NCBI GenBank assembly: GCA_028291565.1
Contig: JAQGHT010000082.1
Coordinates: 1-48,768 of the forward strand
Reading direction: 5' to 3'
Source of the DNA: Planctomycetaceae bacterium
GTDB lineage: Bacteria; Planctomycetota; Planctomycetia; Planctomycetales; Planctomycetaceae
Length of the DNA: 48,768 nucleotides
A program made the position numbers and the translations under genes. The first letter of the stretch is position 1. Each line of letters opens with the position of its first letter. The notes below the pieces were generated by a model. That model ran no database searches and was not told the origin of the DNA. It saw only the letters and a program-made list of their open reading frames with translations. Below, piece after piece: positions 1,691 through 48,708 of the stretch.

Positions 1691-1863
1691 TTGTGGGAGT
1701 GACTTAAGACTTGCACACAAACCAGGACGGAAGTGGACACTCGCCGCTCGAGCACACGTATTTCCGTCTTATCGGCACATAAGAAAGGATTCTTCCCTCA
1801 GATATAGTCGATGACGTCTCGATGGCTATCCAAACCACCTGGTTTACACAATCGGAGCAGTTC

Positions 1864-22098: not shown

Positions 22099-24315
22099 TC
22101 ACCGTGACGGGAGTTGCTTAATCCACTGGCGAATGACGGTCGCCGCTTCCTCGTCCACGCAATTGGTGGCGAGGGGGGGCATCTGCGCGTTGTCGTGGCG
22201 CATTGTCATGCGTTTTAGGAGGACCGAACGTGTCGGGTCGCCTGGCGTGAGCCAGTTCGACTTCCCGGGAAACGCCTCCCGAAGCGGCTCGTGGAAGCGC
22301 AGGTCCATGGCCGCGCCCCCGGCGTGCCCGCGGCCGCCGGGGCTATGGCACATGGCACAGTTGGCGTCGAGGTAGGCGCGGGCCAGCGTGGCGACCGGTG
22401 CCGTCTTCGTCTGCCAGTCCGGGAATGCCTCCAGATCCCCGGCTGTCTTGAGCAGCGGTTCGCTGAAGATTCCGAGACGCTCGAAGACCCTGATCTGGTT
22501 CTCCCTGACCTTGCCGTACTCGAGCTCGCGGTTGAGTTGCCGGGTGTTCAAGCCCATGACGAAACCTGCGTTCTGCGTGTGGCAGGCGATGCAGTCCGAC
22601 CGGCTCGGGAAATACCACTCCCGCTTCACCGGCCCTGTCGCCGTCTTCACGTCGTACTGCTTAGTCAGCGGCCAGTCCGCCAGGAGGTTGGCCTCGTTCT
22701 GTTCCTCGTTCCAGAGGTACGTATACCCCTCCCAGCCGCGCGGGTTGTGGACCAGGAGTCGCGTTTCGAGCCGGCGCATCTCCTTGGGCTTTTCCAGGTC
22801 GGTGTTCATTAGAAACGTCTTGACCAGGACCGTGCCGACGGGGAACTGCCACTGGTCCCGGTCCTTGTAGACCACCTTGGCCTGGGCCGGGAGGACGAGG
22901 AAGCGGTCCTTCGCCGCGCCGTCGGACCAGAGAGGCACGCTCACCGTGTAGGGGATCAGGCCGGCCGCCGGCGTGTGGTCTTTCACCGAGGCGAAAAGTC
23001 CGGTGTCGGTCAACGTCCGGGGGAAGGCGGGGCCGCGTTCGGCCGGCACTCGGAGTCGGTAGACGTACCCGTCGAACGCGGTGAGGTAAGCCTCACCGGC
23101 CTCGTCCTCACCGAAGGCGCTGATGAGCAGGCTCGTGCGGGCGATCTTGTCGTTGGCCGTCAACTTCTTCCCGTCTCGCCGCAGGGCCCACACGTTGCCC
23201 GAGATGAAGTCTGCGTAGAGGTAAGCTCCGGCCAAAGTCGGGCAGGCGCCGACCCCGGTAGACCAGGCCTCCCGTGACGGACTTCCCCTCCACGCGGGGG
23301 TAGTCCAGGACCGGTTCGATGAATTCGCCGACGGGGCTGCGCTCGGCGTTGGGGTCGAGCGGATGCTTGCCCTCGCGGATGTTCCAGCCGTAGTTGCCCC
23401 CGCGGTCGATGATATCCACCTCCTCGTGGCGGTCCTGGCCGACGTCGGCCGCCCAGAGAGTACCCGTCGGTCGGTCGAAGGAAAATCGCCAGACGTTGCG
23501 GAGCCCGTAGGCCCAGATCTCCCCGCGTACGCCGCCGCGGCCCGCGAAGGGGTTGTCCTTGGGGACAGCGTAGTTCTTCCCGTCGTCCTTGTGGTTCACG
23601 TCGATGCGTAGAATCTTGCCATTCAGCATCTCCAAGCTCTGCGCGTTGGCGTGAGGGTCGCCCGCCAGGCCGCCGTCGCCTACACTGATGTAGAGACAGC
23701 CGTCCGGTCCGAACCTCAGGCAGCCGCCGTTGTGGTTGCCGTAGGGTTTGGGGAACTGGAGTAGTATCTCCTCCGAGTCGCGTTGGGCGCGGTCGGGATC
23801 ATCTTTGGACACGCGAAACCGGGACACCACCGACCCGCGCGGGGTGACGGAGTAGAAGACGAAGAACTGGCCGTTCGTGCGGTAGTCGGGGTGGAACGCG
23901 AGCCCCAATAGCCCCTCCTCGTTGTGCTCGCGCCGGACCACGCCCCGGAGGTCGAGAAAGACGTTCGTTTCCTTGGCGTCCGATTGGTTTGGGAAGACGC
24001 GAACGCGGCCGTCCTGCTCGACGACGAACAAGCGGTCCGAGCCGTCGCCGGCGTGGGTGAACTCAACTGGGCGCGTGAACTGAACGTGGGGAATGCCTTC
24101 TCGACTCCCAGAGTCGGCTGCGCGTCTGGGGAACCCATGAGGCGCGACGTGTCCACGGGGACGAACTTGTCCACAGACGTGATCGATGCTGCGGGCTCTT
24201 TATTTGCATCCCCGTCTACCGGGGGTTTTGAAGTCGAGTTCGCCAGCGCGACCCCCAGATACAGGATGGCGGCGGTTCCCGCCATCAGAACAACTCTCGT
24301 TGAAATACCCCTCAT
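22099..24315 (-). pseudogene. PQQ-type (sorbosone/glucose) dehydrogenase fused to a planctomycete-type haem-binding/cytochrome c domain; two frameshifts
   Basis: Three overlapping ORFs (23716..24390, 23108..24031, 22099..23235) join into one protein: signal peptide, FP/HVQFTRPVEFTHAGDGSDRLFVVEQDG, GNHNGGCLRFGPDGCLYISVGDGG, GGLVYRGRRLPD/LAGAYLYADFISGNVWAL, CIACH, CAMCH. The frame changes sit at the run at 24088-24091 and the run at 23234-23236. Confidence 0.8.
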
Positions 24316-24416
24316 AGCTTCTCTCCTTCTCCGAACTCCGTGTGGTGAACATAACAGCGAGACCAGCAACAACGCGCACGGCGCGCCCACCTTTCCGTCA
24401 ACGGCTCCCCCGACTT

Positions 24417-25478: not shown

Positions 25479-26192
25479 CTAGCCCTCCCACTGTGAACCG
25501 CGGAAAACACTGCAGAAGTTCGTGTGCTGGAACTTTGGATCTTTGTCCGCGAGTACATCTGCCTTGACATTGCCGAATGTCGTCTCTGGCTTGTGTTTGA
25601 TGCCGTCGTAAAAGGTCTGGATGATGTCTTCTTTGAAGTGTTCAGTACGCGGATACGCGGCAACGATCGCTTGGCGATCAGCGTCGGAGAATTTCGAGTA
25701 GGCGATTCCAAGAACATCCATTTCGACACCGTTGGTCAATAGCGCAACCACGGGATGCATGTACTGCGGGATACCGGGTGTGGTGTGAAGGGCAATCGAA
25801 GTCCACACTGTGTCGATGTCTTGTTGGGGAATCTTGTGTTGACGAAGAAACTCACGAGCAGCGTTGGCACCGTCTACCTCAAATCGATCGGCTGCGCTGC
25901 TGTGTTTCGGAGTGAGTCCCATATCATGGAACATGGCACTCACATACAGCAGCTCCGGATCGAAGGTGAGTCTTTTCCGTTTGCCGGTTGCAGCGGCAAA
26001 GTAGTAGACGCGGCTTGAATGGTTGAACAGCAACGAGTTCTCTGTATTGCGAACTAACTGGGTGACTTCGCGAGCCATTTTGCTGTCGGGGATGGTCACA
26101 CCAGACCCAAGGGTGAGTGATGCTGCCTGGAGCTTGCCGCTCATTTGGAAGCACAGCGCCACGGGGACGTCGGACAGGGTTTGCTCGATCAT
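25479..26192 (-). CDS. HD-domain metal-dependent phosphohydrolase (cyanamide-hydratase-like subgroup)
   Basis: LLFNHSSRVYYFAA...AMFHDMGL (HD dyad)...ALHTTPGI. ATG 26192 has a GAGAAGG RBS. An alternative internal start is at 26144. Confidence 0.7.
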   Translation of the reverse strand: MIEQTLSDVPVALCFQMSGKLQAASLTLGSGVTIPDSKMAREVTQLVRNTENSLLFNHSSRVYYFAAATGKRKRLTFDPELLYVSAMFHDMGLTPKHSSAADRFEVDGANAAREFLRQHKIPQQDIDTVWTSIALHTTPGIPQYMHPVVALLTNGVEMDVLGIAYSKFSDADRQAIVAAYPRTEHFKEDIIQTFYDGIKHKPETTFGNVKADVLADKDPKFQHTNFCSVFRGSQWEG

Positions 26193-26382
26193 GGTTGAAC
26201 CTTCTCTGGATCAGGTTTTTGTCGTCTGCAAAGATAATCGCATCGCCGAACCGTTCGAGGATCGACTCAGCCAACATAGGCATGTTTTCCAAAACTTCAT
26301 CCTCCTTTCCCGATCAATTCATTCGCCGGCGCTCCGATCCTACCGGACTGTCAGACGGGGACAGGCGTCCTCTCCTTGTCGA

Positions 26383-27681
26383 TCACTTCGACTGCGCGAT
26401 ACTGCATTGCGGGTCGAGATTGCGAATGTGGCCATTCTCCGTCGCCGCATTTGGATCGATTGCACAATCGATCAGGGACGATTTCCCCGAAGCCAGCGCT
26501 TCAGTGAGAGCCGTCGTGAGCCCCTGCGGATCGAAGGCTTGGTAGCCGTCACCGCCAAAGGCTTCGATAAACTTGTCGTACCGCGATTGATTCATGAGAA
26601 CGGGCGGCGCAGGGGCAACTCCTTCGCTGCGCTTGACATCGTTGCCGCGCTCGATTCCGCCGTTGTTGAAGACGACGGTGACGATCGGCAGGTGATAGCG
26701 GCAAATCGTCTCAATCTCCATGCCGCTGAAGCCAAAGGTGCTGTCCCCTTCGATGGCCACAACCGGCTTGCCACTGACGACCGCCGCGCCGATCGCGTAA
26801 CCCCTACCGATGCCCATCACTCCCCAAGTCCCGCTATCAAGGCGTTTGAGTGGCGTGCGCATGTCGATCACGTTGCGGGCGATGTCCAGCGTGTTTGCCC
26901 GCTCGTTGACGAGATAAACATCCGGCCTGTCGGCGAGCACGACTTTGATGGCGGCAAGAGCACTGTAGAAATTCATCGGATTGTGATTGGCGACGAGGTG
27001 GGCCGGCACGCGCTCGATGTCTGTTTGTTTACTCTGAACGAGTTCATTGACCCAGGCGGTGCGAGGCTGGATCTCGCCAGGGGCAGGAAGTTGCCGCGGT
27101 GCCGCGTCGATTACGCAGACCAGCGTTCGCGCAGCGGACTCGGTGTCGACGGTTGCACTGAGAACACTTGCCGGGAGGTCGAGGTACACGCCACCGGGAC
27201 GGCCCGAGACGGCGGCGCGGATTGCACGCGCCAGACCGATGCCGATGTCCTCAGCCCGATTGACCCGGTACGCCGCCTTCGCGTACGGTTTGCCAGCATT
27301 CATCTGGTCGAGTTCCTCATCGTCACCTTGCTGAAGGTCGACAATCGCACGATCTCTCGATCCGCTGATCTGGATCATGGGGAACGCGTTTGTGGTGGCG
27401 TTAGCCAGGGCTACCATGCCGTTGAGAAAGCCGGGCGCGGAGACAGTGAGACAGATACCCGGTTTCTGGGTCAGATAGCCGGCGATCGCCGCCGCGTTGC
27501 CAGCGGATGCCTCATTGTGGAAGCCGATGTAGCGAATCCCTTTGGCTTGAGCCAGCCGCGCCAGGTCTGTGACCGGAATGCCGGCCACACCGAACATTGT
27601 ATCGAGGCCGTTAAGCTTCAAGGAATCGACTAGCAAGTGAAACCCGTTCGTCAGTCTGGACGAATTAGTATTGATTTCCAT
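26383..27681 (-). CDS. Oxalyl-CoA decarboxylase-like ThDP enzyme lacking the central (ADP-binding) domain
   Basis: The PYR domain (GIPVTDLARLAQAKGIRYIGFHNEASAG, CLTVSAPGFLNG, GRPGGVYLDLP) is joined directly to the PP domain (GTWGVMGIG, IEGDSTFGFSGMEIETICRY..FNNGG). The protein is 432 aa against roughly 565 aa for the remembered E. coli and O. formigenes Oxc. Confidence 0.8.
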   Translation of the reverse strand: MEINTNSSRLTNGFHLLVDSLKLNGLDTMFGVAGIPVTDLARLAQAKGIRYIGFHNEASAGNAAAIAGYLTQKPGICLTVSAPGFLNGMVALANATTNAFPMIQISGSRDRAIVDLQQGDDEELDQMNAGKPYAKAAYRVNRAEDIGIGLARAIRAAVSGRPGGVYLDLPASVLSATVDTESAARTLVCVIDAAPRQLPAPGEIQPRTAWVNELVQSKQTDIERVPAHLVANHNPMNFYSALAAIKVVLADRPDVYLVNERANTLDIARNVIDMRTPLKRLDSGTWGVMGIGRGYAIGAAVVSGKPVVAIEGDSTFGFSGMEIETICRYHLPIVTVVFNNGGIERGNDVKRSEGVAPAPPVLMNQSRYDKFIEAFGGDGYQAFDPQGLTTALTEALASGKSSLIDCAIDPNAATENGHIRNLDPQCSIAQSK

Positions 27682-27994
27682 TGGAGGGCCTTTTTATCAA
27701 GATTGCGGAATCTCTCAGACCGACGGTGCAGGCCCAAGCTGTCAACCGTCAAACTAGCGCGGACGAACGAGGTTCCGAGCCAGGCAATGGCGTGATGGCA
27801 AGGTTTGGGTGCGCCGATCAAAAACAGAAGTAGTACTGCTACAGATCGCAGGCGGCCGTGATCATCAGGTCGGTCTGAGAGCCCGCATCTGATTCCCCCC
27901 ACAATGCAAAGGGCGTGCCGTCGGGCGACTGTAACCGGGCAGCGGGCCGATCGAGTCAGCCGGCAATTTGATGCTCGGCACGGCCGTTAAAGCA

Positions 27995-37655: not shown

Positions 37656-38309
37656 TCAAGTGTCGGGAGCCACAATCCCCTTACGGATCGCATAACGTGT
37701 CAGGCTGGCGATGTCGTGGATGTCAAGCACTTTCATCAACTCCCCGCGGTAGGTCTCAGCGGTTTTGACACCGATGCTGAGTTCTTTGGCGATCTCCTTG
37801 GTCGATCGACCTTCCGCAATCAGTTGCAGCACCTCGCGCTGACGGGGCGATAGTCGCTCCAGTGACGTCTGCTCTTTATCCATCCGCCCGATGCAAGCGG
37901 TAACGACATGTTGCGAAATCGCCGAACTGAGAAATATCTCGCCTCTGCCGACAGCCCGAATCGCCTGTTCCAATTCGGCCGGATCGGCGGTCTTTACAAG
38001 GTATCCCGCCGCACCAGCGCGCAGCGTCTGCAACACACTGTCCTCGTCCGCGTTCATCGATAGCATGATCACCCGAGTGGTGCGGCTGATTCGAGCAACC
38101 CGCGCGGCTGCATCCAATCCATTGAGGCCCGGCATCATGATATCCATCAACACGACGTCCGGCATGTGTGCCTCGATCAGCCTCAGTCCATCGCGGCCAT
38201 CGCACGCTTCGGCGACGACTTCGACACCGATGACAGCCTGCAGCAGCGAACGAATGCCAGCCCGAAAGAGGTTATGGTCGTCTACAAGTACGACTCGAAT
38301 TGCAGGCAT
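37656..38309 (-). CDS. NarL/FixJ (LuxR-type HTH) response regulator
   Basis: IRVVLVDDHNLFRAGI, DVVLMDIMMPGLNG, a conserved Lys (GYLVK), and the C-terminal LSPRQREVLQLIAEGRSTKEIAKELSIGVKTAETYR. ATG 38309 sits 5 nt after the upstream stop. Confidence 0.9.
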   Translation of the reverse strand: MPAIRVVLVDDHNLFRAGIRSLLQAVIGVEVVAEACDGRDGLRLIEAHMPDVVLMDIMMPGLNGLDAAARVARISRTTRVIMLSMNADEDSVLQTLRAGAAGYLVKTADPAELEQAIRAVGRGEIFLSSAISQHVVTACIGRMDKEQTSLERLSPRQREVLQLIAEGRSTKEIAKELSIGVKTAETYRGELMKVLDIHDIASLTRYAIRKGIVAPDT

Positions 38310-38314
38310 GACAA

Positions 38315-39373
38315 TTAATCCTCCATTTTCTCCGACAGTTCGATGGCTCCGCTCAACGGGAAAGACGTACGAACCTGGGTACCAACCCCCAGTACTGATT
38401 CTACGTACAGTACTCCTCCGAGCAGTTGAACACGCTCCGCCATTCCCAACAAGCCAAGGCACCCGCGCCTGACTGCCTGCTCCTGTACGAGAGCCATATC
38501 AAAGCCTCTTCCGTCATCGCGGACAATCAGCTCCAGGGCTTCATCGCTTTGGCGCAATTCGATCCAGACTTGCCGCGCAGCGGCGTGCCGGACCACGTTG
38601 GTTAACGCCTCTTGCGCCACACGAAAGCAAGCGATCTCCACATTGGGAGAGCGCATTTCCGAGGAAATGTGGCCCGAGACCTGGACCACCCACCCATTCC
38701 GATACCGATGCTTCTCGGCGAGCCAGTTCAGAGTTGCTTCCAGACCGTGCGTGTCAAGCATCGTCGGTCGCAACTCAAGCGACAGGTTACGCACCTGTTC
38801 CCCTGCATCCCTCAAGAGTTTGGCGCATTCGTCTAAACCCGAGTGAGCGGACTCCCCGGCCAGACCACGCGCGGCGTGGAGGTGCAACGTGATGGTGGCC
38901 AGAATCTGACCAAACTCGTCGTGCAATTCGCGGGCCAAATGCCGCCGCTCTTCTTCTTGAACTTCGACTAATCGCCTTGAAAGTGCTTGCATTCTGGCAG
39001 CATATTGCTCCAAAGCGTGCTCTGCTGGTGGACGCTGTTGCGCTTCCCGTTCCACCTCACACAGCTTGGTGAGAACATGTAAAAAGCCACTGGATTGGGA
39101 CAGAACTTGTTGTTCCCACGGTTGTTTGGCGGTGTCGAAGACGACGGGAATGGATTCAATGGCTGGCTCGGCTCGCAATCGGCGAACAAACTCTCCCCCA
39201 TCCATGGTTGACATCTCGAAGTCAGCGATGATCAGATCGGGTAGCTCGGCTACGGCGACAGCAATCCCCTCGACTCCGTCAGTTGCATTGAGCAGGCGAT
39301 GGCCCCAGTTTTCAAGAAGAGTTACCAGATACTGTTGGTTGGCAGGTTGAGCATTGATGATCAATATCGTCAT
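38315..39373 (-). CDS. Receiver-domain-fused HisKA_3 histidine kinase (REC - DHp - HATPase_c), with an atypical receiver
   Basis: REC-like MTILIINAQP...DLIIADFEM...VVFDTA...LTK, then DHp EEERRHLARELHDEFGQILATITLHLH and HATPase motifs EALTNVVRHA, DDGRGFD, GLLGMAERV. Start is ATG 39373 or TTG 39406. Confidence 0.85.
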   Translation of the reverse strand: MTILIINAQPANQQYLVTLLENWGHRLLNATDGVEGIAVAVAELPDLIIADFEMSTMDGGEFVRRLRAEPAIESIPVVFDTAKQPWEQQVLSQSSGFLHVLTKLCEVEREAQQRPPAEHALEQYAARMQALSRRLVEVQEEERRHLARELHDEFGQILATITLHLHAARGLAGESAHSGLDECAKLLRDAGEQVRNLSLELRPTMLDTHGLEATLNWLAEKHRYRNGWVVQVSGHISSEMRSPNVEIACFRVAQEALTNVVRHAAARQVWIELRQSDEALELIVRDDGRGFDMALVQEQAVRRGCLGLLGMAERVQLLGGVLYVESVLGVGTQVRTSFPLSGAIELSEKMED

Positions 39374-39630
39374 CCTAACCCGTTCGTTTTCCACTTTCAC
39401 AGTCAAGTCTTGTCCTCGGTCAGAACGACCTCTTATTCAATGCGACGTAGGATGAATCGAAGCAGTTGGCGTTGTCCCAGCGAGAGGTTCCGCTGAGTTC
39501 GCCGAACCGACCATTGGATCTGGGTATCAAACCAGCCATACGGCTCTCACGCTGCGGAGCGAGAAATTCGCCACTACGCCTTTAAATTGGTGGGGTATTG
39601 CTAACTTGGCGGGATATGAATCGGTGGGGT

Positions 39631-39928: not shown

Positions 39929-42082
39929 TCACTCCTCGGCGTCTGCAGATTCCTGCCTGGCGTTGTTTATGGGGAAAGACGCACATATGTGGGTGTGACT
40001 TCCCGGTTCGGATTCAACGACCAGGCTACCACCTAGAATCTGGACACGCTCTGCCATCCCCAGCAGACCGAGACCTCCGCGTCTAGTGGACTGCCCCTGC
40101 GTGCGAATCACATCAAATCCCACGCCATCATCGCGAACGACCAACTTCAGAATGCTCTCGCTCTGACTCAATTCGATCCATACATTACTTGCTGCGGCGT
40201 GGCGCATTACGTTGGTCAGCGCTTCCTGCACCACACGGAAGCAAGCAATCGCCAATTTGGGAGCAAGTGGTTCCAGTGGCAGGTGGCCCACGATATGTAC
40301 AGCACAGCCCCCCCTCTGCTGGTGCTGCTCAGCGAGCCAGCGCAGCGAGGTTTCCAGCCCGAAGCTGTCGAGCATAGTTGGACGCAGTTCGAGCGCCAGG
40401 CTGCGCACCTGCTTCCCAGCTTCCCGCAGGAGCGAGGAGCATTCGTTCAAGTGGGGAACCGCGTCCGGCCCGGCTAGGCCCCGTGCCGCATGGAGGTGCA
40501 AAGTTATGGTCGCCAGAATCTGGCCGAACTCGTCATGTAATTCGCGGGCCAAGTGGCGACGCTCTTCCTCCTGGACTTCGAGCAGCCGGTGCGAAAGGGT
40601 TTGTAAGCGATCCGCAGATTCACGCAGGGCTTCCTCGGCCCGCTTGCGTTCGGTGATATCCCGGTGAGCGCAGAGATGAAGGCCAGGCAGAATGTTGGCG
40701 ACCGAGCGGAATTCAACCTCCCGGGTCGTGCCACTTTTACACAATACCGTGATCTCGCCGCTCAGCGATCCGTCAGAGAGTAAAAGCTCCAACAATTGAT
40801 GGATACGCTGGCGCGTCTCGACTGGAGTGACATCCCAAATCGTCAACTGGACGAGTTCGTCCCGACTGTAACCCAGTAGCTTGCAGGCCGCCGGATTTCC
40901 CTCCACGTACCGGCCGCTTTGATCAAAAAGAAATATTGGGTCAAGGGCATTTTCAAAGATGGCGTGGGAGCGCCGTCGGTTTTCCTCAAGCATCTCTTCT
41001 ACGCGCCTGAGTCCCGTGACGTCCTGAGCCGTTCCAACCAGGCGAATCGGCTCGCCTTGCTCGTTCAGAATGACTCCACCGCGGTCGTGCAATACACGAG
41101 TGCTGCCGTCTGCAAGGGTGATTCGGTAGTCACAACTGAAATTGCGGCGATCGCGAATTGCCTCCTCTACCGTTGCGCGAATCCGCTCGACATCGTCCGG
41201 CACGAGGAATTTCAGGAACTGCCGGTAGGAGAGGTCAACCTCGTCCGCTTTGGCGCCAAAAATGCGGTAGAGTTCGTCGGACCATGTGACCTCATTGGTA
41301 CGTAAATCCCGTTCCCAACTGCCGATGTGCGCGACTTGCTGTGCCTCGGCGAATCGACGTTCGCTTTGCTTGAGCTTTTCGAGGGCATGTTCCCGCTCCT
41401 GCTCGGCTGTGCTCGCCCGTTTCAACTGTGAAATCCACCAGTCTACTCGCCGCTTCTTGAATTCGGGGGTCGTTCCGGCGTGGTCTTGCATCAATAATAT
41501 TTCTGGACTTTCGTAATAGGGGTTGAGAAAAACCTGGTCATCTAGGATCACGAGAGGGTGGGTTCGAATGACGTCATGAATGCACGGCGAGTCAAAGCGA
41601 GATTTATTGTACTGGCATAAGACCACCGACTTGCTGCTTTTGAGCAAGTGATTAAAGAGCGCCTCGTATTCGATCAACCGATCGCAAATGGAATCCGCTT
41701 GTAATGCCCAAGTCATTTCGCCCACCAAGCGCAATCCGGAAAAACCGGCGGCGAGTGCCTCGACCTCCGCCTCATGGACAAAGTCCGTCATCACTTGGGG
41801 AACAAAGTTCCCAGTCCGGAGGTAAGTGTCCTGGCTGGTTTGTAAACGCAAGGCGCCACGAAGGAGTTCTTGATCCACATTCACACCAGCCGCTGAAAGG
41901 GTCTCAGCAACTTCTTTGATTGTATGTTCGTCCGCAATATAGAGACAGCGCGCTTTTTGATTGATCCCTTCTTTGATGAACTGTACCGCCGCGTCTAATT
42001 GCTCGTCCGCATTTTCGTAGATCGAGCAGATATGATCGCCGTATTTCAGTTTGGAGAGTTCTTGCTCCAGATTGGTTGACAT
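39929..42082 (-). CDS. MEDS-domain / PAS / PAS / HisKA_3 sensor histidine kinase (cytoplasmic)
   Basis: The N-terminus YGDHICSIYENADEQLDAAVQFIKEGINQKARCLYIADEH..MTWAL is the MEDS pattern. Two PAS domains follow, then DHp EEERRHLARELHDEFGQILATITLHLH and HATPase EALTNVMRHA, DDGVGFD, GLLGMAERV. Confidence 0.85.
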   Translation of the reverse strand: MSTNLEQELSKLKYGDHICSIYENADEQLDAAVQFIKEGINQKARCLYIADEHTIKEVAETLSAAGVNVDQELLRGALRLQTSQDTYLRTGNFVPQVMTDFVHEAEVEALAAGFSGLRLVGEMTWALQADSICDRLIEYEALFNHLLKSSKSVVLCQYNKSRFDSPCIHDVIRTHPLVILDDQVFLNPYYESPEILLMQDHAGTTPEFKKRRVDWWISQLKRASTAEQEREHALEKLKQSERRFAEAQQVAHIGSWERDLRTNEVTWSDELYRIFGAKADEVDLSYRQFLKFLVPDDVERIRATVEEAIRDRRNFSCDYRITLADGSTRVLHDRGGVILNEQGEPIRLVGTAQDVTGLRRVEEMLEENRRRSHAIFENALDPIFLFDQSGRYVEGNPAACKLLGYSRDELVQLTIWDVTPVETRQRIHQLLELLLSDGSLSGEITVLCKSGTTREVEFRSVANILPGLHLCAHRDITERKRAEEALRESADRLQTLSHRLLEVQEEERRHLARELHDEFGQILATITLHLHAARGLAGPDAVPHLNECSSLLREAGKQVRSLALELRPTMLDSFGLETSLRWLAEQHQQRGGCAVHIVGHLPLEPLAPKLAIACFRVVQEALTNVMRHAAASNVWIELSQSESILKLVVRDDGVGFDVIRTQGQSTRRGGLGLLGMAERVQILGGSLVVESEPGSHTHICASFPINNARQESADAEE

Positions 42083-42614: not shown

Positions 42615-42773
42615 TAATTGGCCTTCCGCGATGTCCAGTCCGCGGATTGATGTTTTTGAAATTCTTTCCCGTCTCTTGAGGTTTTCTTTTCGTGACGGAA
42701 CCGCTGAGTCCGAAACAGATTGCGACAGCCGGTTCGTCCGTCGATTCCGCCGCAAATTCTTTCCTCTTTTTTT

Positions 42774-42789
42774 TGGCACATGTCTTGCC
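42774..42789 (+). promoter_or_regulatory. Sigma-54 (-24/-12) promoter
   Basis: TGGCAC-ATGTC-TTGCC is a perfect match to TGGCAC-N5-TTGCW, is preceded by a T-rich tract, and has its -12 GC 73 nt upstream of ATG 42861. Confidence 0.7.
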
Positions 42790-42860
42790 TTGACGCTAAT
42801 AGAGAGAGTCCCCGAGTAGGCGTTCCCGAATCGTTCACGAATTCGTCGAGGAGAAATTCC

Positions 42861-44039
42861 ATGTCCGACAGTAACCGCCGAGACTTCCTCGCTGGGGCGG
42901 CTCTGTTCGCAGCCGCCACTACAGCGATGTTGGCAAACCGAACGACTGAAGCCGGTGACCCGAGCTTTATGAACAATGTTCCTGATCCTGCGCTTGCCGG
43001 CAAAGAGTTACCCACTTTCAAGTTCGCCCTGGAAAAGTCGGAAGGCAAGGTGATTGGTAAGAGCTTTGGCAAAGAGGCCACCGTCGAGCAATTACCGATT
43101 TCAAAGGGCATCGCGGGGGTTTCGATGAAGCTGGAACCAGGTGCCATGCGCGAATTGCATTGGCATGCGACTGCAGCCGAATGGGCATTCGTGGTCGAAG
43201 GGCGAGTCCGAACGACCGTCATCGACCCTGACGGGAACGCAGAAACGAATGATTTCGGACCAGGGGATGTGTGGTTGTTTCCACGCGGCCACGGCCACAT
43301 GCTCGAATGCCTGAGACACGAGCCGGCGCATTTCATTCTGATCTTCGATAACGGCTACTTCTCGGAATTCGGCACATTCAGCATCAGCGATTGGATCGGC
43401 CACACGCCGAAGCCGCTGTTGGCGAAGAACTTTGGCATTCCCGAATCGGCCTTTGATGGATTTCCCAAGGACGAAGTGTACTTCGCTCGCGGCGCCGTAC
43501 CACCTGAGAAGCAAAGTACTCCGCTCCAGGGCCGGAAGTTGCCGGCGCAGACACACAAGTTCGAACTCCTTGAACAACCGCCCCATAAGGTCTTCAAAGG
43601 AGGCCGTGAGTGGCGGGTCGATTCCAGGCGGTTCCCGATTTCGAAGACGATCACAGGCGTGATTTTGGACCTTGAGCCAGGCGGGCTGCGCGAACTGCAT
43701 TGGCATCCGAATGCCGACGAGTGGCAATACGTGATCGAGGGGAACGTCAGTGTGACAATGTTTGGCTCACACGGCCGGTACCGAACTGAAACGATGGAAA
43801 AGGGAGACGTCGGTTACATCCCGCAAGGCTATGGGCACTCGATCGAGAATATTGGGAACAAACAGTGCCGGATTCTCATCGGATTCAACTCAGGTGTGTA
43901 CGAGGCGATCGATCTGTCGCAATGGTTCGCCGGAAATCCGGTCGATGTGCTGGCCACCAACTTCAGCAAGCCTGCGTCGTTGTTTGAGAGGTTTCCCAAG
44001 CAAGATGTGTTCATTTCACCCCAAGGAGAACCGCAATAG
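42861..44039 (+). CDS. Tat-exported bicupin oxalate decarboxylase (OxdC/OxdD-like)
   Basis: Twin-arginine leader MSDSNRRDFLAGAALFAAA. Cupin 1 is ELHWHATAAEWAFVVEG...FPRGHGH and cupin 2 is ELHWHPNADEWQYVIEG...IPQGYGHSIEN. The lid FSEFGTF retains the Glu of the OxdC SENS lid. GAGGAG RBS. Confidence 0.85.
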   Translation: MSDSNRRDFLAGAALFAAATTAMLANRTTEAGDPSFMNNVPDPALAGKELPTFKFALEKSEGKVIGKSFGKEATVEQLPISKGIAGVSMKLEPGAMRELHWHATAAEWAFVVEGRVRTTVIDPDGNAETNDFGPGDVWLFPRGHGHMLECLRHEPAHFILIFDNGYFSEFGTFSISDWIGHTPKPLLAKNFGIPESAFDGFPKDEVYFARGAVPPEKQSTPLQGRKLPAQTHKFELLEQPPHKVFKGGREWRVDSRRFPISKTITGVILDLEPGGLRELHWHPNADEWQYVIEGNVSVTMFGSHGRYRTETMEKGDVGYIPQGYGHSIENIGNKQCRILIGFNSGVYEAIDLSQWFAGNPVDVLATNFSKPASLFERFPKQDVFISPQGEPQ

Positions 44040-44144
44040 CAAGTCTTCTCGCGATGACTTTGTGCGTCTGGTGCGGTCGGGCGGGGCAATTCGCCCCAAA
44101 TTCCCGATTGATCCGATCTCTGCTCGTAGTTTACGGAGCAAAAC

Positions 44145-45323
44145 ATGCAGCCTGAAAATCACGAATCCAGTTTCATTAGACGACTTTTGCTGATCGTCTT
44201 CGTTAGTCTAAACGTACTGGATTTGCTCTTCACATCTCACTTTGCGCCGAATGTGAGTCGAGCCGAAGAATCGCCACGTTCGAAGTCGGTCGCGGAAACT
44301 TCTAATGAACGCTCCGCGTCAAAAGTCGATGATTTGCTCAAAGAAGCGCAACGTCACTTCAAGCCACTCCCTAAGGATCTGGCGACTCAGGAATTCCCAA
44401 TTAATCCGGACCTAGTAACTCTGGGCCGCAAGTTATTCTTCGACCCGCGAATTTCCGCGGATGGAACAGTCAGTTGTTCGCGGTGTCATCAAGCTGCTCT
44501 GTACGGCACCGATGGGCTCGCAAAGTCACACGGAGCGCACGACAAGGTGCTTCCCCGCAATGCCCCAACCGTATTCAATGCCAGTTTGCATTTCAAGCAA
44601 CACTGGCGGGGCGAATTGCAGTCTGTCGAGGAGCAGGCGAAACGGTCGCTGGTGGGACCAGGATTTGCCAATCCAGACTACGTCACGGCAATGACCAAAT
44701 TGAAGGCGATCCCCGGATACTCCGAGATGTTCCTGAAGTGCTTCCCAGGCTCGGCCAATTCAGTAACCGAAGACAACTGGGGCAAGGCGATCGGTGCGTA
44801 TGAGCGAACGCTGGTCACGCCATCTCGATTCGACGAGTTCCTCAATGGAACTACCAATGCCCTCACAAGTGCGGAACAACAGGGACTACGTACTTTTATT
44901 GGCACGGGTTGTGCCCTGTGCCACAACGGAGCTGGAATCGGGGGTGATAAATTCAGGAAGTTCGGCGTGCTGGAAGACTACTGGCCTGCGACTCACAGTA
45001 AGGACGTCGACAAAGGCCGATTCGATCTGACGAAAAATCTGGACGATCTCTACCTGTTTAAAGTCCCGGGCCTCCGCAATGTCGAGACGACGCCACCGTA
45101 TTTCCATGACGGCTCGGTTACCAGGTTACCGGATGACGTCCGAATAATGGCTCGGGTGCAACTCGACGTGACCCTGTCCGAGCGCGACACGACAGCGATC
45201 GTGACATTCCTGAAGAGCCTGACAGGTAAGCGTCCGCAGGACTTCACCGACGCACCGATTCTCCCGGCCGCCGGATTCGACTCATCGGTCACTAGTACTG
45301 AGGACCAACATGCTACTCGCTGA
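44145..45323 (+). CDS. Di-haem cytochrome c peroxidase (CCP/MauG family)
   Basis: N-terminal signal/anchor, haem motifs CSRCH and CALCH, and the conserved PPYFHDGS region. Confidence 0.85.
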   Translation: MQPENHESSFIRRLLLIVFVSLNVLDLLFTSHFAPNVSRAEESPRSKSVAETSNERSASKVDDLLKEAQRHFKPLPKDLATQEFPINPDLVTLGRKLFFDPRISADGTVSCSRCHQAALYGTDGLAKSHGAHDKVLPRNAPTVFNASLHFKQHWRGELQSVEEQAKRSLVGPGFANPDYVTAMTKLKAIPGYSEMFLKCFPGSANSVTEDNWGKAIGAYERTLVTPSRFDEFLNGTTNALTSAEQQGLRTFIGTGCALCHNGAGIGGDKFRKFGVLEDYWPATHSKDVDKGRFDLTKNLDDLYLFKVPGLRNVETTPPYFHDGSVTRLPDDVRIMARVQLDVTLSERDTTAIVTFLKSLTGKRPQDFTDAPILPAAGFDSSVTSTEDQHATR

Positions 45324-46221
45324 GAAAAACAATTATCCCATCGATCGGGCACTGGCAAACGTGCAAATGTCGCGTATTTCAGGAAGTAGTTTGGTCAATG
45401 ATGCGGATGAGTTGGCTGTCGAAGAACCGCTGGAAATCCGGCTCGGCTGCGACGTGGAAGGCAAACGCATTCACCGCGCCGTCTCAATTACGATGCGTAC
45501 GCCCGGTCACGATCTGGAATTGGCGGTCGGATTTCTGTTTACCGAGGGAATTATCTTCGCACGGGATGAAGTGGCGGGGCTAGTCGCCTGCGGGGCCGGC
45601 AATGTTGCCCGAGTCAATTTGCGGCGCGGCAGCGAGGTGGACTTGTCGCGACTGGAGCGGCACTTCTACGCGACTTCAAGCTGCGGCGTGTGTGGCAAAG
45701 CGTCGCTGGATGCAGTGCGGGTTTGCCCCCGGAGTCGCCCTGTGGACGGCCTTCCCGTCGTCGACGCGGCTGTCATCCACCGGCTGCCGGCGACTTTACG
45801 GGCGGCCCAAGCCGTGTTCGACCGCACCGGCGGCCTACACGCATCGGCACTCTTCAATTCCCAGGGTGAAATGGTGTGCCTTCGCGAAGATGTCGGCCGG
45901 CACAACGCTTTGGATAAGTTGATCGGTGCTCAATTCCTGGCTGAGCGTACGCCCCTCACGCAAAGTGTGTTGCTGGTCAGCGGCCGGGTCAGCTTCGAAT
46001 TGGTTCAGAAGGCGGCGGTGGCGGGTATCCCCATTCTGGCGGCAGTCGGCGCTCCGTCGAGTCTGGCGGTCAGCCTGGCCCGCGAGCACGGCCTGACGGT
46101 CCTCGGCTTTGTGCGCGAAGATCGCTTCAACATCTACACTGGTAGCGAACGCATTCGTCATGCCGGAGCAATGAATCCGCTGCTGGATTATGAATCGCTG
46201 GAGCCGCCGCCACTCATCTAA
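45310..46221 (+). CDS. fdhD: FdhD formate-dehydrogenase accessory sulfurtransferase
   Basis: TSSCGVCGKASLD, GGLHASALF and EDVGRHNALDKLIG. The ORF overlaps the peroxidase stop. An alternative start is ATG 45367. Confidence 0.85.
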   Translation: MLLAEKNNYPIDRALANVQMSRISGSSLVNDADELAVEEPLEIRLGCDVEGKRIHRAVSITMRTPGHDLELAVGFLFTEGIIFARDEVAGLVACGAGNVARVNLRRGSEVDLSRLERHFYATSSCGVCGKASLDAVRVCPRSRPVDGLPVVDAAVIHRLPATLRAAQAVFDRTGGLHASALFNSQGEMVCLREDVGRHNALDKLIGAQFLAERTPLTQSVLLVSGRVSFELVQKAAVAGIPILAAVGAPSSLAVSLAREHGLTVLGFVREDRFNIYTGSERIRHAGAMNPLLDYESLEPPPLI

Positions 46222-46236
46222 TCGGGAGATTTTGTA

Positions 46237-48708
46237 ATGGATGAATTGAATCAAACGCCAGCGGAAAGTAGCACTTCCAGTGGACAATCCTCGGCCGATT
46301 ATCAGCCACAGCACGAAGTACCTCACACCTCAACGGCGCAAAACGAGGCGAAGGCGCCAGAGGCTCAATTGGTTGGCGGGCACGGTGATGTGAATCCGCA
46401 GATGTCTGAGCAATTGATGGGACTCCGTCAGCGAGAGCCGGAACGCAAAGCGACCGGAATCAAGGCCGTAATCTCCAGTTTTCACTATGCCTGGGGTGAG
46501 GCAGGGTTGATGCGCGGCACGTTGCCGCTCTTGCAGCTCAATCAGAAGGACGGCTTCGACTGTCCGGGTTGTGCCTGGCCTGACTCGGATGGCAAGCGTT
46601 CGAGATTCGACTTCTGCGAGAACGGGGCCAAGGCCGTTGCACATGAGTCGGATCGCCGCCGCATGACGGCGGAATTCTTCGCCTCCCACTCGGTAGCCGA
46701 ACTGTCGCAACAATCAGACTATTGGCTGGAACAACAGGGTCGATTAACCGAGCCAATGGTCCTCCGAGCGGGAGCGACGCACTACCAACCCATTTCCTGG
46801 GACGACGCATTCACCTTGATCGCAAGCGAGTTGAACGATTTGGCTTCGCCTGATGAGGCGATATTCTATACGTCCGGAAAGGCGCCGAATGAAGTCGCTT
46901 TTGCCTACCAACTTTTCGCGCGGCAGTTCGGCACGAACAACCTGCCCGATTGTTCCAATATGTGCCATGAAGCCAGCGGCACAGCGCTGAATCGCGTGTT
47001 GGGTTTCGGCAAGGGAACCGTCAAGCTGGACGACTTCGCCAAGTCACAACTCATTTTTGTCGTCGGCCACAATCCTGGGACAAATCACCCGCGAATGTTG
47101 ACTGAGCTCCAGGCCGCCAAACGGAATGGCGCCAAAATCATCGCCGTCAATCCTCTACCAGAGACTGGCCTGATCGCATTCATGAACCCACAAGAGCCTT
47201 TGGGATTGCTCGGCGCCGCCACGCCGATCGCTGACTTGTTTTTGCAAGTGCGGATCAATGGCGACGTGCCACTATTCAAGGGGATTCTCAAGGCGCTCAT
47301 CGAAGCCGAGGATCGTCAATCAGGTTCGGCCGTGGCGTGGGACTTCGTACGAGACCATACTGCGGGCGTGGAGACGCTGCTCAATGACGTTCGCTCCGCC
47401 TCTTGGGACGATATTGTACGGGTTTCGGGAATCGAGCGATCCCAGATTGAAACTGCCGCTGAATGGGCTCGGGCGACCGATCGCATCATTGTCAGTTGGT
47501 GCTTGGGGGTCACTCAGCATCACAATGGCCCAGGCAACATTCAGGAAATGCTCAACCTCTTGTTGCTGCGCGGAGCAATGGCGAAGCCCGGGGCTGGTGC
47601 GAGCTGCGTCCGTGGGCATTCGAACGTGCAGGGCGATCGCACCATGGGAGTGTGGGAACGTCCGAAGCCAGAGTTCCTGGATGCACTGTCCGAAGCGTTC
47701 CACTTCCAACCGCCGCGCGAGCACGGCTTCGACTCACAGAAGTCGGTCAAGGCGATGCACGACGGCCGCGGAAAGGTATTTGTCTCACTGGGCGGCAATT
47801 TTCTGCTCGCCCTTTCGGACACGGCCTATACCGCGGAGGCCCTCTCTCGCACGAACCTGACCGTGCGGATTGGCACAAAGCTCAATCGCTCCGACCTCGT
47901 CACCGGTCGGCAAGGACTGATTCTGCCCTGTCTCGGACGCACCGAGGCTGATATGTCTGCACCGACCAGCTCACGGCCCGCGACCCAACAATTTGTGAGT
48001 TGTGAGAACTCAATGGGAGTGGTCCAGTGGTCGCGGGGCACGTTCACCCCTGCTTCGCTACAGCTCATGGGCGAGACCGCTATCGTCTGCCGCATGGCTC
48101 ACGCCGTGCTCGGTAGTCGGACCACTGTCGATTGGCCCGCCTGGGCCGATGACTATGACCTGATTCGCGACGGGATCGCGAAGGTCATCCCAGGCTTCAA
48201 GGACTACAACGACCGGGTCCGGCAACTTGGAGGGTTCTATTTGCCGAATCCGCCGCGCGAAAATATCTATCAAACTGACACAGGCAAAGCGAACTTCTCC
48301 GTCAATCCCATCCCCGAGCATCATTTGGAGCCGGGCCAATTTGTCATGACGACTGTTCGCAGCCACGACCAATTCAACACCACAATCTACGGGCTGCACG
48401 ACCGCTATCGTGGACTGCACTACGAACGACGGATCGTGATGCTGAATCGTGAGGACATGGCCGAACTGGGGATTCCGCCTCGCGAATTGGTCGATGTGAC
48501 GAGCCACTGGAAAGGACAGACACGGACGGCCAACAACTTTCTCGCCGTTGAGTATCCAATCCCGCGACGTTGCGCAGCGATGTACTACCCCGAGGCCAAT
48601 GTGCTGATCCCAATTGAGAGCACGGAGCCCTTAAGCAACTGCCCCACCTTTAAACACACGATCATCAGCTTGCGACCGGCCAGAGGAAATCAGAACTCTT
48701 CCACTTAG
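46237..48708 (+). CDS. Molybdopterin oxidoreductase alpha subunit, YdeP / FdhF-like (Cys-type) family
   Basis: N-terminal Fe-S motif FDCPGCAWPD...FCENG, Mo-ligand region LPDCSNMCHEASG, and MGD-binding segments (FVVGHNPGTNHPR, SWCLGVTQHHNG). About 820 aa with no signal peptide. Confidence 0.85.
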   Translation: MDELNQTPAESSTSSGQSSADYQPQHEVPHTSTAQNEAKAPEAQLVGGHGDVNPQMSEQLMGLRQREPERKATGIKAVISSFHYAWGEAGLMRGTLPLLQLNQKDGFDCPGCAWPDSDGKRSRFDFCENGAKAVAHESDRRRMTAEFFASHSVAELSQQSDYWLEQQGRLTEPMVLRAGATHYQPISWDDAFTLIASELNDLASPDEAIFYTSGKAPNEVAFAYQLFARQFGTNNLPDCSNMCHEASGTALNRVLGFGKGTVKLDDFAKSQLIFVVGHNPGTNHPRMLTELQAAKRNGAKIIAVNPLPETGLIAFMNPQEPLGLLGAATPIADLFLQVRINGDVPLFKGILKALIEAEDRQSGSAVAWDFVRDHTAGVETLLNDVRSASWDDIVRVSGIERSQIETAAEWARATDRIIVSWCLGVTQHHNGPGNIQEMLNLLLLRGAMAKPGAGASCVRGHSNVQGDRTMGVWERPKPEFLDALSEAFHFQPPREHGFDSQKSVKAMHDGRGKVFVSLGGNFLLALSDTAYTAEALSRTNLTVRIGTKLNRSDLVTGRQGLILPCLGRTEADMSAPTSSRPATQQFVSCENSMGVVQWSRGTFTPASLQLMGETAIVCRMAHAVLGSRTTVDWPAWADDYDLIRDGIAKVIPGFKDYNDRVRQLGGFYLPNPPRENIYQTDTGKANFSVNPIPEHHLEPGQFVMTTVRSHDQFNTTIYGLHDRYRGLHYERRIVMLNREDMAELGIPPRELVDVTSHWKGQTRTANNFLAVEYPIPRRCAAMYYPEANVLIPIESTEPLSNCPTFKHTIISLRPARGNQNSST

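Follow-up and report, generated by a model that had tools for sequence, protein, structure and literature searches.

Can a gene still be an oxalyl-coenzyme A (CoA) decarboxylase (OXC) gene in function after its whole middle domain has gone, or is such a gene a new two-domain enzyme, or simply a gene in decay? This question is raised by a locus on contig JAQGHT010000082.1 of assembly GCA_028291565.1, a stretch of 48,768 nucleotides (nt) from a Planctomycetaceae bacterium, which is analysed here at its full length and is called the window. On its minus strand, at 26383–27681, lies an open reading frame (ORF) of 432 amino acids (aa) plus stop, which we call oxc-deltaR; all its codons are open, with 0 frameshifts or internal stops. 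An earlier sequence-only reading, made without database searches, had seen in it either a recently crippled gene or a natural two-domain thiamine diphosphate (ThDP) enzyme. The evidence favours the crippled gene. We lean, with modest confidence, to an oxc gained by horizontal transfer, whose original function is lost and which, under relaxed constraint, has begun to decay, and keep the two-domain ThDP enzyme as a minority reading.

The missing domain and its junction

The gene and its parts are as follows.

26383–27681, minus strand: oxc-deltaR, an OXC-derived PYR-PP protein without TH3/R (Pfam, NCBIfam, OXC alignments)
27079–27681, minus strand: PYR half and PYR-to-R linker, aa 1–201 (E. coli OXC 5–202; 84–86% nt identity to the relatives L001, L002 and L083)
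27076–27081, minus strand: deletion junction at codons Pro201 and Gly202, between 27079 and 27078, with 414 bp (138 codons) lost (sister comparison; spanned by a contig)
26383–27078, minus strand: R-to-PP linker, PP domain and C-terminal lid, aa 202–432 (E. coli OXC 343–559)

In the 432-aa product, Pfam finds TPP_enzyme_N at 12–128 and TPP_enzyme_C at 269–406, and gives no match for TPP_enzyme_M (PF00205); that is, the three-domain PYR-TH3(R)-PP architecture is not present. The nearest relatives, which we call the sisters, are the loci L001, L002 (a Rokubacteria metagenome-assembled genome) and L083, in which oxc directly follows the formyl-CoA transferase gene frc. Protein identity is 79–80% to these canonical frc-linked OXCs and 57–62% to three solved OXCs. 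The two halves have been aligned to residues 5–202 and 343–559 of E. coli OXC, to residues 22–217 and 362–580 of M. extorquens OXC, and also to O. formigenes OXC, which bears out the claim that both ends match Oxc. Compared with the sisters, exactly 138 residues (sister 202–339) are missing, i.e., the whole TH3/R middle domain, whose absence the sequence-only reading had correctly seen and put at ~135 aa. In the sister protein P0037, Pfam places PF00205 at 204–333, inside the deleted segment, and TH3 covers ~197–336 in the standard numbering of the decarboxylase superfamily (PMC3534367).

At the family level, the product passes the OXC equivalog NF006721 (PRK09259) of NCBIfam with 649.5 bits (cutoff 557), and fails TIGR03254 with 635.3 (cutoff 739.4). 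Both models match it in two stretches, leaving profile positions ~209–340 unmatched, and the NCBIfam matches listed (25 of 50) are OXC, ALS and HACL-type models. AlphaFold2 with 120 aligned relatives has given a pLDDT of 55 and a pTM of 0.49, and for a full-length sister with the same sequences 57 and 0.57. Since the full-length sister is equally low, the low confidence should come from the shallow alignment, and is uninformative on the deletion.

At the nucleotide level, the left breakpoint reads ..CCT GCT CCA/GAA.. and the right one ..AAG CCC/GGC CAG.. in the sister, while the window has ..CCT GCC CCT GGC GAG... The loss is thus an in-frame deletion of 414 bp flanked by CC(N)G microhomologies, and the protein junction is ..RQLPAP/GEIQPRTAW... 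It lies inside the interval 27040–27090 where the sequence-only reading had placed it, though the true point is 4 residues from where that reading had drawn it.

A short gene of this kind could also be false, produced by the assembly or by chimeric metagenomic reads. Coverage is low (6–11x), conserved k-mers are common to many other oxc genes of the same soil, and chimeric-looking oxc fragments do occur in databases (e.g., P0238 and P0144). On the other hand, we have found the oxc-deltaR sequence in one soil metagenome run (X1), and in the Logan contigs, an independent contig-level assembly of the reads of this same run, a contig of 3,057 bp at depth 8 passes gap-free across the junction and into the upstream host kinase gene. 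These contigs hold no alternative contig or loose end at the junction, even at 88% likeness. The breakpoints share only 3–4 nt, too few to make a de Bruijn graph collapse at this point. In addition, both halves carry derived substitutions, have the same relatives and show similar synonymous divergence (dS). Overall, an artefact is extremely improbable, the check for assembly collapse upholds the deletion, and the domain-deleted ORF is confirmed as real.

Active-site residues and the old function

The residues in question, all aligned with OXCs of O. formigenes or M. extorquens or compared with relatives, are the following.

27319–27321, minus strand: Asp121 (GAT codon) for O. formigenes Tyr120 / M. 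extorquens Tyr134 by alignment; Tyr in 147 of 147 relatives
26650–26652, minus strand: Glu344 for O. formigenes Tyr483 / M. extorquens Tyr497, TAT to GAG by two nt changes; Tyr in 161 of 161 relatives
26434–26436, minus strand: Asn416 for O. formigenes Ser553 / M. extorquens Ser568, in the C-terminal lid; Ser in 158 of 160 relatives
26899–26901, minus strand: Arg261 for Gly (M. extorquens Gly414), adjoining the active-site residue Ala415 of M. extorquens (alignment; PMC8411744)
27508–27516, minus strand: Asn56-Glu57-Ala58, with the ThDP-activating Glu kept and the flanking His and Gln replaced (comparison of relatives)
26662–26748, minus strand: ThDP/Mg motif G312-D-S-(T)...N339-N340, kept, with GDSA changed to GDST (A315T; Ala in 161 of 161 relatives)

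According to PMC8411744, Tyr134/Glu135 and Tyr497/Ser568 of M. extorquens OXC hold in place the waters by which the carbanion/enamine intermediate is protonated, and Tyr134, the equivalent of O. formigenes Tyr120, is a ligand of the proton-relay water W1. In O. formigenes numbering this relay set is Tyr120, Glu121, Tyr483 and Ser553. It reads Asp121, Glu122, Glu344 and Asn416 in oxc-deltaR, with three of the four replaced. The first replacement had been noticed from the letters as QQGDYEE turned into QQGDDEE, and its GAT codon does align with O. formigenes Tyr120. The losses of Tyr483 and Ser553 had escaped the sequence-only reading, as had the horizontal origin, the truncation of the operon and the tie of the neighbouring HD gene to the imported cluster.

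The ThDP-binding elements, i.e., the activating Glu in PYR and GDX(25-30)N in PP, are present, with their neighbours H56, Q58 and A315 changed. The motifs FHNEASAG and GDS..NNGG had both been called intact, which holds for their cores: the catalytic Glu57 is kept, but the His and Gln found at positions 56 and 58 in 145 of 145 and 138 of 145 relatives have become Asn and Ala; the second motif is in place, but GDSA now reads GDST. Further replacements are Arg278 to Leu, Met293 to Arg, Pro401 to Ser, Gly413 to Ala and Asn423 to Asp. The replaced positions are essentially invariant among 145–161 independent oxc genes. Actually, when the columns invariant in 119 relatives are counted, oxc-deltaR shows 18 changes, while the other relatives show 0.34 on average and 2 at most.

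Mutants of M. extorquens OXC indicate what such replacements may cost. The kcat falls from 98 s-1 to 1.3 in Y497A and to 0.32 in Y497A/S568A with KM unchanged, and the single alanine mutants Y497A and S568A form formyl-CoA 20–50-fold less (PMC7154664). As to the lost domain, the OXC middle domain binds ADP, and in the related actinobacterial 2-hydroxyacyl-CoA lyase (AcHACL) four of the seven listed CoA contacts (Q255, R273, S274 and R362) come from it (PMC8760513). Since TH3/R is gone and three relay residues are replaced, oxalyl-CoA would not be bound or turned over at a useful rate.

One may still argue for a working OXC, ADP-independent and slower, with the formyl-CoA transferase encoded elsewhere in the genome. 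It is 79–80% identical to canonical OXCs, passes NF006721 (649.5 vs 557) and keeps the ThDP motifs, and the host has oxalate/formate genes (bicupin, FdhD, FdhF) at 42720–48708. However, Tyr120, Tyr483 and Ser553 are all replaced, where Y497A/S568A alone cuts kcat ~300-fold; with the middle domain, the ADP site and several CoA contacts have been lost; TIGR03254 fails (635 vs 739); and frc is absent from the contig. We hold this reading to be very improbable. Judged from its sequence, the product of oxc-deltaR is very probably not a working OXC. This also makes the gene an annotation hazard, since NF006721 passes a domain-deleted and active-site-mutated protein as 'oxalyl-CoA decarboxylase', and pipelines would thus credit the planctomycete with an oxalate-CoA pathway that it almost certainly lacks.

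Relaxed constraint, probable decay and possible repurposing

We have measured how oxc-deltaR evolved after it separated from the sisters, to which its dS is ~0.5 and unsaturated. In Tajima relative-rate tests, it has 54–58 unique replacements against 16–21 in the sister (p = 1e-4 to 1e-6). Non-synonymous and synonymous changes (N/S) were polarised with three outgroups, the three sister tips being pooled. N/S is 58/52 on the own branch of oxc-deltaR and 52/76 in the sisters (Fisher p = 0.07), that is, raised 1.6-fold, and to the same extent in the PYR and PP halves. A contrast between a constrained PYR and a relaxed PP, which we had considered, vanished on polarising; PP is faster than PYR in the sisters too. 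As an internal control, the HD-domain gene downstream has 8 unique changes vs 4–5 in relatives, with a dN/dS ratio (ω) of 0.13, while oxc has 47 vs 9–13.

The replacements also fall with little regard to ancestral conservation. Per site, their rate is 0.115 in invariant columns, 0.121 in columns conserved at >=95%, 0.174 at >=80% and 0.25 at <80%, whereas the sister rate at invariant columns is ~0–0.02 (Fisher p = 0.004 for the shift of oxc-deltaR toward conserved columns). In direction, 14 changes go from hydrophobic to polar and 9 the reverse way (p = 0.4). This absence of a polar trend counts against adaptation to a newly exposed surface, which predicts a polar shift. Overall, by its substitution pattern, oxc-deltaR is under relaxed constraint, with neutrality not proven, and a history of two phases fits, namely purifying selection followed by a neutral-like phase of ~0.03 substitutions per site with ~25–40 replacements.

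The change apparently goes on in the population, as can be seen at the end of the gene.

26375–26491, minus strand: polymorphic 3' end, where the minor allele carries 5 substitutions and a 3-nt insertion that keeps the frame

Here Logan contigs of depths 6 and 4.2 (the minor allele) merge into one of depth 11. The contig depth suggests that the gene interior is common to both alleles, and the junction is likely to be so as well. The minor allele encodes the ancestral Gly413 and Asn423 together with the derived Asn416, and diverges 8 nt past the stop codon. As it is ancestral at two lid positions, either the replacements in the invariant lid are recent and still segregating, or two very close copies differ.

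If oxc-deltaR were an established two-domain enzyme, conserved short orthologues should be found, as the sequence-only reading had itself proposed to check. We have searched four collections, and the peptide patterns of the scan included the derived motifs YIGFHNEA and DDEELDQM of the query. Among 5.8 billion proteins, the 119 best matches are all 563–596 aa long with PF00205, and oxc-deltaR forms a singleton cluster. Among 1.84 billion representatives (HMMER), there is no two-domain group, and the few internally shortened entries have other junctions or are chimeric. In 185,579 species genomes, each of the best 80 loci has its full length. The same holds for the best 80 in 241 million metagenome records, save for some unrelated truncations of other kinds. 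Among the loci listed, none has the junction or the derived motifs of oxc-deltaR, and none is >86% identical. Short orthologues are thus found in none of the four collections. Together with replacements that disregard ancestral conservation, this goes most of the way toward the refutation which the sequence-only reading had itself set for the enzyme.

Several apparent short forms were rejected on inspection: P0125, P0154, P0238, P0247 and others are actually full length, contig-truncated, chimeric or of different junctions, and L112, L143 and L155, matched by their C-terminal halves, are other, 5'-truncated oxc remnants rather than the same architecture. About 5% of the fetched soil-metagenome oxc loci are truncated or internally deleted, each elsewhere (L112, L143, L155, L154, L161 and L137). 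L143, for instance, has a PP-domain-only ORF with a start near residue 342–360, and broken oxc proteins are seen also in P0122, P0125, P0144 and P0238. Broken oxc copies are a common background in soil assemblies.

From these observations, the following course of decay can be proposed. As the sequence shows, a Rokubacteria-type oxalate-cluster fragment lies in a Lacipirellula-like planctomycete, with frc absent and the PAS gene cut to a stump. A microhomology-mediated in-frame deletion of 414 bp has taken out the entire TH3/R domain, and Tyr120, Tyr483 and Ser553 (O. formigenes numbering), three of the four holders of relay water, have been replaced. The product could probably still fold its two ThDP-binding domains. 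After the loss of function, ~25–40 extra replacements blind to ancestral conservation should have come in, and they may still be accruing in the population. The frame may be open simply because the decay is young, which is the cheaper explanation. More speculatively, frame-breaking mutations could be polar (Rho-dependent) on the intact downstream HD gene and hence selected against. The PAS stump, a nearby pseudogene of glucose/sorbosone dehydrogenase (GSDH) and cytochrome c, the second allele and the recurrence of broken oxc genes in soil assemblies all support decay.

Several observations weigh against this course of events. The ω on the oxc-deltaR branch is ~0.39 vs 0.23 in the sisters, i.e., it is not 1, and the rise is only marginal; a neutral pattern had been named beforehand as the sign of a simple pseudogene, and what we find, N/S of 58/52 included, is relaxed but not fully neutral, with an intact frame. 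In simulations, the probability of meeting no stop is ~0.32–0.42 for 30–40 neutral replacements (a neutral phase of 36–53 substitutions). Indel:substitution ratios known from pseudogenes are 0.05–0.15; with this range assumed, an intact frame has a joint probability of 0.0004–0.10. Both indels of the ORF have lengths divisible by three (414 bp and 3 bp). The excised piece coincides almost exactly with the domain, which a random deletion would achieve with a probability of ~0.002, a value to be discounted as many relics were implicitly screened. Finally, of the eight residues around the ThDP site three have changed, vs 15 among the 148 remaining invariant columns (Fisher p = 0.05), slightly above the expectation of a flat model.

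Such observations would agree with a repurposed protein, i.e., a minimal PYR-PP ThDP enzyme for a small CoA-free substrate, or a ThDP-binding but non-catalytic protein, whose frame is kept by selection. Neutral-equivalent change of ~0.03 substitutions per site has left the frame intact, neither indel has shifted it, and the excised residues 202–339 follow the domain boundaries (PF00205 204–333, TH3 ~197–336). Glu57 and the GDS..NN motif are kept, and changes in the ThDP shell are enriched (p = 0.05). The change of Tyr483 to Glu took two nt changes and would put a carboxylate near the position of the catalytic Glu493 of AcHACL (PMC8760513). The gene interior appears to be the same in two alleles whose downstream flanks differ, and natural ThDP families without TH3, the sulfopyruvate and phosphonopyruvate decarboxylases (SPDC and PPDC), do exist (PMC2831816). 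Against these stand the lack of any orthologue or family in the four collections searched, invariant residues of the fold type that are hit as often as variable ones, newly exposed surfaces that are no more polar, replacements in the invariant lid that still segregate, flanking cluster genes that are lost or truncated, and no detection of transcripts in runs that were small. We therefore regard repurposing as possible but the less probable account. If it is true, the exact excision of TH3 with the acidification of the active site (Asp121, Glu344, Asn416, Arg261) would be a recent and traceable origin of a two-domain ThDP architecture out of a three-domain one, with a new CoA-independent activity.

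Either outcome has its use. If oxc-deltaR is a relic, it offers a worked example of an imported operon fragment in mid-decay, with donor-like relatives at hand for comparison. If repurposing is true, it is a natural experiment in which one-step excision of the middle domain from a ThDP enzyme of the decarboxylase superfamily leaves a selectable protein; this would bear on the relations between two- and three-domain ThDP families, and on smaller OXC/HACL-type carboligases for one-carbon metabolism.

Origin, neighbours and known systems

The gene is part of an imported island of ~2.2 kb, made of oxc, the 5' stump of a PAS gene and an HD gene. Besides oxc itself, its features are as follows.

27682–27708, minus strand: short leader (~25 nt) with homology to the spacer between frc and oxc in the sisters; homology ends here and frc is gone
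26182–26307, minus strand: 5' stump of the PAS gene, ~42 codons (tblastn 55% identity over 42 aa, E = 2e-10)
25479–26192, minus strand: HD-domain gene, intact and conserved, with a true start possibly at the Met at 26144 (92% nt identity to the HD gene that follows oxc in L083)

Nucleotide homology (78–86%) to L001, L002 and L083 is confined to 27708–26222, plus the HD gene at 92%. In L001 and L002 the PAS gene comes after oxc, and homology stops after the stump; PAS is absent from the L083 spacer. The 48.8-kb contig contains no CoA_transf_3 homologue, although the sisters have frc directly upstream of oxc, and the statement that no formyl-CoA transferase gene is nearby thus holds for the whole window. 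A supposed upstream remnant of frc came down to noise-level alignments (scores 24–27). Around the island, the contig carries a host signature: an FdhF/YdeP 79% identical to that of Lacipirellula, a PSCyt1 domain, and an ECF sigma factor with a TPR-containing Ser/Thr kinase. The GC content at third codon positions (GC3) is 0.70 for oxc-deltaR, 0.78–0.80 for the sisters and 0.59–0.67 for most host-type genes of the contig, and synonymous changes on the oxc-deltaR branch run 54:13 in favour of GC to AT over AT to GC. Given the homology limits, the host-type flanks, the intermediate GC3 and this bias, the island is a horizontally acquired and rearranged fragment of an oxalate cluster in the course of amelioration. 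By the same marks, its recipient is a Lacipirellula-like planctomycete and its source a frc-oxc cluster of the Rokubacteria type.

The HD gene was first taken for host or unrelated DNA, an idea that had to be rejected, as the gene is part of the imported oxalate cluster. It occurs in the frc-oxc-apbA-HD-PAS-acyl-CoA-synthetase clusters of L162 and L163, and its native 5' end has been replaced at the rearrangement in the window. The OXC/HD dS ratio is ~2.3 for the window and L083 as well as for L083 and L162, and the two genes have plausibly arrived together because of this equality. The HD protein (223 aa) is 85–92% identical across hundreds of soil contigs with ω ~0.09, in the context frc-oxc(-apbA)-HD-PAS-acyl-CoA synthetase-CMD-MFS; its gene lies at 25479–26192 in the window, 4914–5582 in L083, 6001–6672 in L162 and 3958–4629 in L163. 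A role of this protein in oxalate/formyl-CoA metabolism appears to be undescribed. In L162 (5873–5956) and L163 (3833–3909), apbA ends in a copy of ~80 nt of the 3' end of oxc, ~79% identical to 26392–26475 of the window. This suggests an insertion of apbA between oxc and HD in which the end of oxc was duplicated, and would make the spacer a rearrangement hotspot.

Scans of the locus for promoters, terminators and Rfam families found nothing. Three small metatranscriptomes of the same study contain no contig of the oxc-deltaR locus, the runs being small and uninformative.

The oxalate decarboxylase genes that had been reported in the window are there as well, with a bicupin (oxalate-decarboxylase-like) gene at 42720–44039. 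On the plus strand at 42720–48708, the bicupin (439 aa), a di-haem cytochrome c peroxidase, FdhD and an FdhF/YdeP molybdoenzyme follow in a row. They plausibly form a CoA-independent route of the host from oxalate to formate to CO2; if so, the imported OXC would be redundant.

Other features of the window are of separate interest. A fusion gene of GSDH and planctomycete-type cytochrome c (22099–24390, minus strand), 2 kb from oxc-deltaR, is split into three overlapping ORFs by frameshifts at ~24085 and ~23232; it is a real pseudogene, as both frameshifts lie in gap-free independent contigs. Its GC content is 65% (GC3 0.81–0.87) vs 57% for the contig, and it may be foreign. Two HisKA_3-type sensor kinases (38315–39406 and 39929–42082, minus strand) share a near-identical C-terminal module (..LEVQEEERRHLARELHDEFGQILATITLHLHAARGLAG..), and thus go back to a recent duplication; their genes are followed by a LuxR-type response regulator at 37656–38462. 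At the left end of the window (254–1720) there is an Alginate_exp-type outer-membrane gene. Upstream of frc-oxc, donor-type clusters carry Alginate_exp (L162) and Phenol_MetA_deg (L162, L001), at 1–1189 in L162 and 1166–2098 in L001. The overlap in Alginate_exp may be due to chance, or may be one more vestige of content that the clusters had in common.

Among known systems, OXC itself (EC 4.1.1.8; O. formigenes 2C31, E. coli YfdU 2Q27, M. extorquens 7AYG) is the one from which oxc-deltaR directly descends. They share the PYR and PP domains, the catalytic Glu, the GDS..NN motif and the C-terminal lid. Unlike OXC, oxc-deltaR is without TH3/R, has Asp, Glu and Asn at Tyr120, Tyr483 and Ser553 with ~15 other invariant residues changed, and sits in a planctomycete host without an adjacent frc.

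The SPDC/PPDC proteins (ComDE, phosphonopyruvate decarboxylase), to which the sequence-only reading had compared it, are likewise PYR-PP proteins without TH3. This likeness holds for the architecture but not for the descent, which is from OXC (79–80% identity). SPDC and PPDC are old, conserved families acting on 2-oxo acids, while oxc-deltaR is a single recent derivative of a CoA-ester enzyme for which no orthologues have been found; going by these comparisons, it stands outside the natural two-domain families, as a singleton deletion derivative of OXC.

A closer parallel in the active site is given by the engineered M. extorquens OXCs (Y497A; MeOXC4 = E135G/A415C/Y497F/S568G, 7B2E), substituted at the same relay positions, in which decarboxylase turnover is abolished (<0.2% efficiency) while ThDP chemistry persists. 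They keep the middle domain and CoA binding and have neutral residues at these positions, whereas oxc-deltaR has acidic or amide ones and no such domain. In AcHACL (7PT1), the catalytic Glu493 stands at a position similar to Tyr483 of O. formigenes OXC, where oxc-deltaR has Glu344. AcHACL has Gln where OXC and oxc-deltaR have Glu, however, and keeps a middle domain that binds the CoA moiety, and the similarity is far lower (~100 bits). That is, of the features that mark 2-hydroxyacyl-CoA lyases/synthases (HACL/HACS), Glu344 is present in oxc-deltaR, but Glu122 stands in place of Gln and the middle domain is absent.

Lastly, oxc-deltaR shares with early-decay relics after horizontal transfer the truncated operon, the microhomology deletion, the lost catalytic residues, the conservation-blind changes, a frameshifted neighbour and its singleton state. 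As in a pseudogene, essential elements have been lost (TH3, three relay residues, frc and the PAS gene), but the frame is not disrupted. The fully intact frame and the domain-exact internal deletion are what set oxc-deltaR apart from such relics.

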